Shown: in pieces, positions 44,424 to 45,826 of the stretch | How the letters are laid out: the number at the start of each line of letters is the position of its first letter | Numbering within the stretch: position 1 is the first letter of the stretch | DNA from: Xylographa opegraphella | Taxonomy: Eukaryota | Length of the DNA: 64,000 nucleotides | Assembly (NCBI GenBank): GCA_022813865.1 | Contig: JALDZX010000030.1 | Coordinates: 124,001 to 188,000 of the forward strand | Direction: 5' to 3' | Notes under the pieces: model-generated | What the model saw: the letters and a program-made list of their open reading frames with translations, nothing else | Told to the model about the DNA's origin: nothing | Databases searched by the model: none | Position numbers and translations under genes: made by a program

Positions 44424-44847
44424 GTTAATGCAAAGGAAGACGTCGGTCGGTCTGGTTAGGTGACATATTTTGACACATGACAATGACACCGGCTAAGGGG
44501 CAGTACAGGAAGGAACCTAAGTCAGGCGGTAGACCAGCAGCCTAGAGTAGAATTTAGAAGAAAGACTTTTTGACGAATCACACTGTTCGTGACTTGTTTT
44601 AAGTCGAAAAGTAGCGTGAACTTCATGCGCATGTTGGAGACAGCGGATCGGATCTACTTTGTAGCGGCACTCTTACTTCTTCCGGATTAGTTGTGTTCTC
44701 ACTGTCGACTGACTTCTTCTCCGTGACACTGTTCTATCAGAATCACTTGTCACTCATACACTCTACGACTATTTAAGTATTCACGTCCTCCAGCTGTTAT
44801 CGCTGCTTCCTGTTTTTGACCCTCCACCGTGAGTGCTCATCGCAACC

Positions 44848-45826
44848 ATGAATCCTGAGTAGTAAGTCTTTCACTTTGCGTTCTAGCTACCAGACTCTAC
44901 AGTATAGATGGATATGGCCATGGTGCTGACTGAGCTATCTTTGTAGAGTCTTCAAATAGCTACCAGTCTTCGCGGATCTTCTACTGCAGGGCCGAGCACC
45001 CAGCAGCCACCTGCGGGCTCTCCCCAGTCTTTGAATCAGCTAATGCTCCACACTTAGATACGACTACCTCTTTAAGCTTCTTCTTATCGGTGACTCTGGA
45101 GTAGGGAAATCCTGCTTGCTTCTACGATTCGCCGACGACACATACACCGAGAGTTACATCTCAACGATCGGAGTGGACTTTGTAAGACCAGGCCATCCGG
45201 ACAGATTATAACGTTGGAGAGCACGAAACTAACAGTGGAATAGAAAATTCGGACAATCGAACTCGATGGCAAGACTGTGAAACTCCAAATTGTAAGAAAA
45301 ACAGCTCCATGATTACACTCTTGTACGCTGATATTTTGGTAGTGGGATACCGCTGGGCAAGAACGATTCCGAACCATCACATCCTCGTACTACCGCGGCG
45401 CGCACGGTATCTGCGTTGTCTACGATGTGACAGATATGGACTCTTTCAACAATGTCAAGCAGTGGCTGCAAGAAATCGACCGCTATGCTACAGAAGGCGT
45501 GAACAAACTGCTCGTTGGCAATAAGAGCGATATGTCGGACAAGAAAGTTGTGGAGTACACGGTAGCAAAGGTAAGTAACATCGGACCTAGGTATCATGAG
45601 GGCGTTTCTCTGACGCCGCTGCCTTCCTCAGGAATTTGCCGACAGTCTCGGTATTCCATTCCTCGAAACCTCAGCCAAGAACGCATCAAATGTCGAGCAA
45701 GCTTTTCTTACCATGGCGCGCCAGATTAAGGAGAGGATGGGGACTACAACTGTCAACAACAAGCCCACCGTGCAAGTTGGACAAGGACAAGGTGTACAAT
45801 CGGGTTCCGGAGGCGGTTGTTGTTGA
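44848..45826 (+). CDS. YPT1: Rab1/Ypt1 small GTPase
   Basis: [55 protein letters not shown] and C-terminal GGCC. Confidence 0.97.
44859..45057 (+). other. Spliceosomal twin intron ([D3,4] type): internal intron 44862-44946 interrupts the donor of the external intron
   Basis: GA|GTA[GTAAGT...GCTGAC...TTGTAG]AGT...GCTAAT...TTAG|ATAC. Confidence 0.8.

Follow-up and report, generated by a model that had tools for sequence, protein, structure and literature searches.

The first intron of YPT1 and its two donors

How is the first intron of a YPT1/Rab1 gene removed when the donor that the reading frame demands is the aberrant GTAGTA, and a full GTAAGT donor begins three nucleotides further in? The gene concerned occupies positions 44848-45826 on the forward strand of the window (the whole 64,000-nt stretch of DNA analysed here). 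The answer favoured here is that its intron 1 is likely to be a donor-disrupted [D3,4] spliceosomal twin intron (stwintron), which would be spliced in two steps.

The gene contains five exons (Table 1) that, when joined by script, give a 606-nt reading frame encoding 201 amino acids with no internal stops. The product begins with MNPEYDYLFK, contains a P-loop and the motif WDTAGQE, and terminates in the prenylation end GGCC. Exon 4 is 88-100% identical to its counterparts in loci L001-L008, and across residues 5-137 of the protein 130-132 of 130-133 residues match in five loci; the L035 protein matches that of the window at only 107 of 133 residues. The open frame, the motifs and the close orthologues are those expected of a YPT1/Rab1 gene and point to this identity, the family name being assigned from motifs. 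Tandem Repeats Finder detected no repeats in positions 44700-45200.

Table 1. Features of the YPT1 gene in the window, with the stretches of outgroup loci that carry a plain intron (locus coordinates) for comparison
Feature	Position	Strand	Description
Exon 1	44848-44858	+	ATGAATCCTGA; M N P and first two bases of Glu
ATG start codon	44848-44850	+	Sequence reading
Intron 1	44859-45057	+	199 nt; opens GTAGTAAGT (44859-44867)
Outer donor nt 1-3, GTA	44859-44861	+	Split donor, sequence reading
Inner intron	44862-44946	+	85 nt; GTAAGT donor, GCTGAC branch, TAG acceptor
Inner donor GTAAGT	44862-44867	+	Sequence reading
Inner branch GCTGAC	44925-44930	+	A (44929) 17 nt before acceptor end
Inner acceptor TAG	44944-44946	+	Followed by AGTCTT at 44947
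Outer donor nt 4-6, AGT	44947-44949	+	Joins GTA to give GTAAGT once the inner intron is out
Rest of outer intron	44950-45057	+	Outer total 114 nt including split donor
Outer branch GCTAAT	45039-45044	+	14 nt before TAG
Outer acceptor TAG	45055-45057	+	Sequence reading
Exon 2	45058-45181	+	Last Glu base, A-TAC-GAC onset, up to GVDF
Intron 2	45182-45243	+	62 nt, donor GTAAGA
Exon 3	45244-45291	+	Joined reading frame
Intron 3	45292-45342	+	51 nt, donor GTAAGA
Exon 4	45343-45570	+	Joined reading frame
Intron 4	45571-45631	+	61 nt, donor GTAAGT
Exon 5	45632-45826	+	TGA at end
Stretch with outgroup intron, L009	253-752		Plain, Tyr codon
Stretch with outgroup intron, L024	1636-2291		Plain, Tyr codon
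Stretch with outgroup intron, L025	1532-2067		Plain, Tyr codon
Stretch with outgroup intron, L031	1647-2177		Plain, Tyr codon
Stretch with outgroup intron, L043	1955-2177		Plain, Tyr codon

Intron 1 has the anatomy of a [D] stwintron. The inner piece possesses a donor, a branch motif and a YAG acceptor of its own, all three of consensus form; the donor of the outer intron is interrupted between nucleotides 3 and 4, and excision of the inner piece puts GTA beside AGT to rebuild a canonical GTAAGT; and the outer intron retains its own branch and acceptor, with both introns of workable size. The open 201-aa Rab1 frame is reached only via the junction 44858^45058 (^ marks a splice junction). Joining 44861 to 45058 yields ATG AAT CCT GAG TAA (MNPE-stop), as does removal of the inner piece alone, and in all loci with the arrangement ..GAGTR^GT...AG^ATAY the union of inner donor and outer acceptor likewise produces GAG-TAA, a stop at codon 5. 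The original prediction had claimed that both shortcuts end in MNPE-TAA, which was confirmed when the two joins were re-read, and each coordinate that it had given for intron 1 proved correct on direct reading of the sequence.

Proposed order of splicing

In fungi, a splice site pairs with its closest partner across the intron, and for this reason GUAAGU at 44862 is expected to pair with the inner 3' signals. In the first step, it would engage GCUGAC (branch A at 44929) and the UAG at 44944-44946, releasing 85 nt; ligation would bring GUA (44859-44861) beside AGU (44947-44949) and so create a new canonical GUAAGU. In the second step, this rebuilt donor would act with GCUAAU (45039-45044) and the UAG at 45055-45057 to remove the 114-nt outer intron, joining GA to AUAC and encoding MNPEYDYLFK. 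The predicted reaction order is hence inner intron first and outer intron second, with the uncut GUAGUA presumably not a working donor. If two-step splicing is obligate, it might act as a regulatory checkpoint, as the original prediction speculated.

Conservation of the layout in orthologous loci

Six orthologues separated by deep divergence keep the whole arrangement. When metagenomes were scanned with exon 4 as the query, 80 loci were kept, six of which (L001, L003, L004, L006, L007 and L035) have an entire intron located at GA^A-TAY; L002 and L005 are of the same type and end before the 5' end of the gene, making them uninformative on the layout of intron 1. The comparison loci are metagenome contigs and, by similarity, appear to belong to filamentous ascomycetes. 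The motif ATGAAYCCNGA lies upstream of intron 1 in L001, L003, L004, L006 and L007, 163-261 nt before exon 2, and L035 has a counterpart of this ATG exon.

The window and the six loci share GTR, a full donor, a branch motif, YAG and then AGT or TGT, in that order (Table 2). Outer nucleotides 1-3 are GTA in five of the seven sequences and GTG in two, a distribution that fits a purine at donor position +3 and not a Tyr codon. Outer nucleotides 4-6 are AGT in six and TGT in one, giving rebuilt donors of GTAAGT (four sequences), GTGAGT (two) and GTATGT (one). The inner branches of the six loci read RCTRAC or TTTAAC and lie 13-28 nt upstream of YAG, the outer branch conforms to NYTRAY in 5/7 sequences (CTCAC in L003 and L007), and YAG directly precedes A-TAY-GAY in 7/7 sequences and also in L005. 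Across the loci the inner intron ranges from 60 to 183 nt and the outer from 78 to 136 nt.

Table 2. Intron 1 signals in the window and in the six loci with a complete intron at the same position
Sequence	Outer nt 1-3	Inner donor	Inner branch	Inner acceptor	Outer nt 4-6	Rebuilt donor	Inner/outer length (nt)
Window	GTA	GTAAGT	GCTGAC	TAG	AGT	GTAAGT	85/114
L001	GTA	GTACGA	GCTAAC	CAG	TGT	GTATGT	99/136
L003	GTA	GTATGT	ACTGAC	CAG	AGT	GTAAGT	69/111
L004	GTG	GTATGT	ACTGAC	CAG	AGT	GTGAGT	183/78
L006	GTA	GTAAGT	ACTGAC	CAG	AGT	GTAAGT	60/132
L007	GTA	GTAAGT	ACTGAC	TAG	AGT	GTAAGT	81/111
L035	GTG	GTAAGT	TTTAAC	CAG	AGT	GTGAGT	63/100

These introns are neither recent copies nor near-copies of one another: a MAFFT alignment of all seven is conserved at both ends only and unalignable in between, and identity at third codon positions of exon 4 among the seven sequences is 24-63%. 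The original prediction had called for a survey of orthologous ypt1 introns, and its [D3,4] reading is borne out by the result, with the same layout in 6/6 complete, otherwise unalignable introns in addition to the signals of the window itself. Taken as an interpretation of genomic sequence, the [D3,4] reading is strongly supported by this comparison.

Two further observations concern the survey more broadly. In the close relative L002 (positions 1-200), YPT1 exons 2 and 3 are fused and the protein is continuous; given this fusion, intron 2 was either lost or never gained in that lineage. A scan of genome contigs with exon 4 yielded no further fungal intron 1, returning only archaeal and bacterial small GTPases together with L099, L100 and L112. 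These three are contigs of 223-393 nt in bacterial genome assemblies that carry eukaryote-like Rab1 fragments (92% identity over 36 residues in L100), and they look like eukaryotic contamination.

The uncut donor and possible direct cleavage

Fungal donors follow the consensus GURWGY in the stwintron literature, as given in the texts of PMC12403724 and PMC7138796, and the uninterrupted outer donor GTRGTA departs from it at positions +4 to +6. Position +5 is G in 22/22 other ypt1 introns (eight sequences: the window and seven loci), and also in 7/7 inner donors and 7/7 rebuilt donors; in the uncut outer donor it is T in 7/7. Judged by this comparison, the outer donor in its uncut form stands out as abnormal among those of ypt1. 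Intron 1 is also exceptional in size, at 163-261 nt versus 50-110 nt for the other ypt1 introns.

These data bear on the possibility that intron 1 is a single ordinary intron, cleaved directly at GA^GUAGUA and removed as 199 nt in one step, with the inner branch and acceptor idle; in the manner of a GYNGYN tandem donor, U1 may dock on the GUAAGU that overlaps it. The outer GT falls at the very point that the reading frame requires, tandem donors three nucleotides apart are a described class (PMC1779574), and ATGAAYCCNGAGTRWGT, the intermediate junction predicted by two-step splicing, had 0 matches when sought in all 159 fetched loci. However, direct cleavage leaves unexplained why a branch motif, YAG and AGT or TGT are kept in 7/7 unalignable introns, why this would be the sole ypt1 donor without G at +5 against 22/22 others, and why the length of the intron is two- to fourfold the usual. 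Under intron definition, moreover, the first pairing should be that of the perfect inner donor with the inner 3' site close by. Removal in one step thus seems unlikely as the account of this intron. A mixture of the two-step and direct routes is possible; the related [D6,7] complex intron of Lipomyces starkeyi is described in PMC7138796 as removable in either one or two steps.

Chance expectation for the inner signals

The frequency with which the inner signals of the [D3,4] layout would arise by chance was estimated in two ways. The inner signal was defined as a NYTRAY hexamer with its A 6-40 nt before the end of YAG, followed by AGT or TGT, with each resulting half at least 45 nt long. Dinucleotide shuffles of the interior of the window intron recreated this signal in 138/5000 cases, and across the seven introns the figure was 54-181 of 5000, with a product of 2.6e-12. 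On both strands of the window (128,000 nt), the signal occurs 24 times, corresponding to P = 0.020 over 110 eligible positions; this empirical rate gives P = 0.014-0.032 per intron and a product of 1.5e-12. Both approaches place the chance of inner signals at 1-4% per intron, and both products overstate independence because the seven sequences share ancestry. Even with this shared ancestry, the result points clearly one way.

When the full [D3,4] layout was written as a regular expression, it matched twice on both strands of the window, once at intron 1 and once at 60587-60971. Applied to the fetched loci (183,857 nt), the same complete motif model gave four matches, all in ypt1 intron 1; L003 and L007 were missed because their outer branch is CTCAC. 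The match at 60587-60971 (forward strand, GTG^GTACGC.., with halves measuring 190 and 195 nt) falls between two genes, where long reading frames are lacking, and is probably due to chance.

Could the gene model itself be at fault, the ATG exon not being the true first coding exon, or could the inner signals be coincidental? Exon 1 has only 11 nt of coding sequence, and the window holds the one further, non-coding-looking motif match just described. Nevertheless, ATGAAYCCNGA recurs at the spacing noted above in five loci, with the equivalent exon in L035; exon 2 contains no Met ahead of the P-loop; and a pattern with a chance of 1-4% per intron is found in 7/7. An error or coincidence of this kind is very unlikely.

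Repeats and pairing within intron 1

Several small repeats are visible within the intron. A perfect 10-nt inverted repeat pairs AGACTCTACA (44892-44901) with TGTAGAGTCT (44942-44951), and its 3' arm spans the inner acceptor together with the AGT needed to complete the outer donor. A conserved RNA stem over the inner acceptor was considered and rejected, with no comparable pairing conserved in the six loci. When 44862-44896 is compared with 44947-44969, the inner and rebuilt outer introns of the window also start alike past the donor hexamer (GTAAGTCTT), and TAGCTACCAGACT recurs as TAGCTACCAGTCT, 73 nt apart; in L006 (positions 2021-2030) the likeness of the two onsets beyond the hexamer is GTAAGTTCCT.

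Such matches hint, if weakly, at small duplications within the intron. When the inner and outer halves, which have short matches in common, were compared, the observed score was reached by 9/1000 shuffles in the window, 16/1000 in L001 and 25/1000 in L006, and by 91-533 of 1000 in L003, L004, L007 and L035. Origin of the stwintron by internal duplication was rejected, the support from shuffling being too weak to claim it.

An intron three nucleotides downstream in outgroups

In six more distant loci (L009, L024, L025, L031, L040 and L043), the acceptor lies three nucleotides further downstream (AG^Y-GAY). Exon 1 could be located in five of these (L009, L024, L025, L031 and L043), where it ends in ..GAR-TA (..GAC-TA in L043) and is followed directly by GTAAGT or GTGAGT. 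These eukaryotic, Rab1-like outgroups carry a plain canonical intron within the Tyr codon, ..TA^GTRAGT ... YAG^Y-GAY, and the five introns (2251 nt in total) contain 0 inner-signal sites. The ascomycete-type loci have the same 5' context, ..GAGTA^GTAAGT, whereas their final junction falls three nucleotides upstream on both sides relative to the outgroups, with an extra ATA on the 3' side.

This resemblance could be taken to mean that the ancestral splice has simply been retained at its original position, with donor GAGUA^GUAAGU, 3' cut ..AGAUA^CGAC, three bases past the AG, and GAG-UAC as the outcome; such a cut shares its 5' context with outgroups such as L024 and encodes an identical protein, but the intron would end in UA, not AG, and the GTG of L004 and L035 would join UG to C and give Cys instead of the invariant Tyr, and on these two grounds a non-AG 3' cut was rejected as scarcely credible.

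Under the [D3,4] reading, by comparison, the outgroup and window junctions suggest a codon-sized intron shift. The ancestral donor seems to have been kept as the inner donor, since the outgroups carry a plain intron three nucleotides downstream, and the effective intron position would have slid by 3 nt; the polarity of this shift is based on five outgroup loci. We lean slightly towards the fuller historical account, in which an ancient, lineage-wide [D3,4] stwintron would have evolved from the Tyr-codon intron of MNPEY that is widespread among eukaryotes, the ancestral donor becoming the inner donor and the intron position moving upstream by exactly 3 nt.

Relationship to known stwintrons and other stepwise or tandem splicing

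Most of the stwintrons described so far are of one kind: nearly all are [D1,2] and other types are rare, according to the text of PMC12403724 (2025). The introduction of PMC7138796 lists [D1,2], [D2,3], [D5,6] and [A2,3] as demonstrated types, and its results add [D4,5], [D6,7] and [D7,8]; for stwintrons with the inner intron at other donor positions, the splicing intermediate has been verified by RT-PCR in fungi (PMC7138796). The original prediction had named the three types [D1,2], [D2,3] and [D5,6] and no [D3,4] case in an essential Rab, which agrees with the introduction of PMC7138796; the three types added in the results of that article were not on its list.

Neither a [D3,4] case nor a ypt1 host was seen in the text consulted from the stwintron papers cited here. 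GTPase, Rab1 and ypt (ypt1 in the case of PMC9024468) are unmentioned in PMC7138796, PMC12403724, PMC5639578, PMC6616335, PMC5587772 and PMC9024468; for PMC8469720, this applies to GTPase only. A search for literature on ypt1 introns found nothing relevant.

The closest parallels are the [D2,3] stwintron of bioDA in Sordariomycetes and the [D4,5] stwintron of a reticulon-like gene in Lipomyces lipofer, in both of which a U2 intron likewise lies inside a 6-nt U2 donor (described in PMC5639578 and PMC7138796). Their inside-out excision rebuilds a canonical donor, as proposed here for YPT1. They differ in that their intermediates have been sequenced, whereas the YPT1 case is read from genomic sequence; conversely, the YPT1 intron is distinguished from both by its YPT1/Rab1 host and by a split between donor nucleotides 3 and 4.

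The [D5,6] stwintron of a reticulon-like gene, reported from nine classes of Pezizomycotina (PMC6616335), is similarly old and holds one position while its sequence drifts. However, its donor is split at another position, and it is described as occupying an N-terminal extension of low conservation and as taking part in exon skipping (PMC6616335). YPT1 intron 1, in contrast, interrupts the coding sequence of an invariant N-terminal motif, in which each shortcut produces a stop at codon 5.

A link between stwintrons and small displacements of introns between orthologues has also been drawn for an alternatively spliced [D1,2]/[A2,3] stwintron, which the text of PMC5587772 puts forward as a route to a single-nucleotide intron shift. 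The putative YPT1 displacement differs from that case in measuring 3 nt, in keeping the old donor as the inner donor and in offering no alternative pathway to the same mRNA.

Tandem GYNGYN donors resemble intron 1 in having two GT dinucleotides three nucleotides apart at the intron start, but in those donors, known from other eukaryotes, either GT can be used directly, giving products one codon apart (PMC1779574). In YPT1, by contrast, joining the downstream GT to the final acceptor creates a stop codon, and an inner 3' site is conserved.

In recursive splicing, a donor is regenerated after the upstream exon has been ligated to a ratchet point, a process that takes place in very long introns. 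Stepwise removal and regeneration of a donor at the junction are common to the YPT1 proposal and to recursive splicing of abutting introns, but in YPT1 the part to go first would be a small intron lying inside the donor. PMC6616335 mentions that abutting introns are spliced recursively in animals.

Implications

That filamentous fungi pair their splice sites across introns is shown most clearly by stwintrons, which also serve as models of intron origin, movement and disappearance. A stwintron of type [D3,4] would extend the range of donor-split positions beyond those in the stwintron literature surveyed, in a layout kept over so much divergence that synonymous sites are saturated. The ypt1 host is small, highly conserved, single-copy and easy to assay, and the outgroups with a plain intron three nucleotides away make intron sliding testable by natural comparison. 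The locus also carries a warning for annotation: gene finders that rely on consensus donors will choose the GTAAGT at 44862, truncating or mis-starting YPT1. If the proposed history is true, this intron would add a new type of stwintron, located in a housekeeping gene, and would also illustrate by example how the sliding of an intron can be linked to a stwintron.
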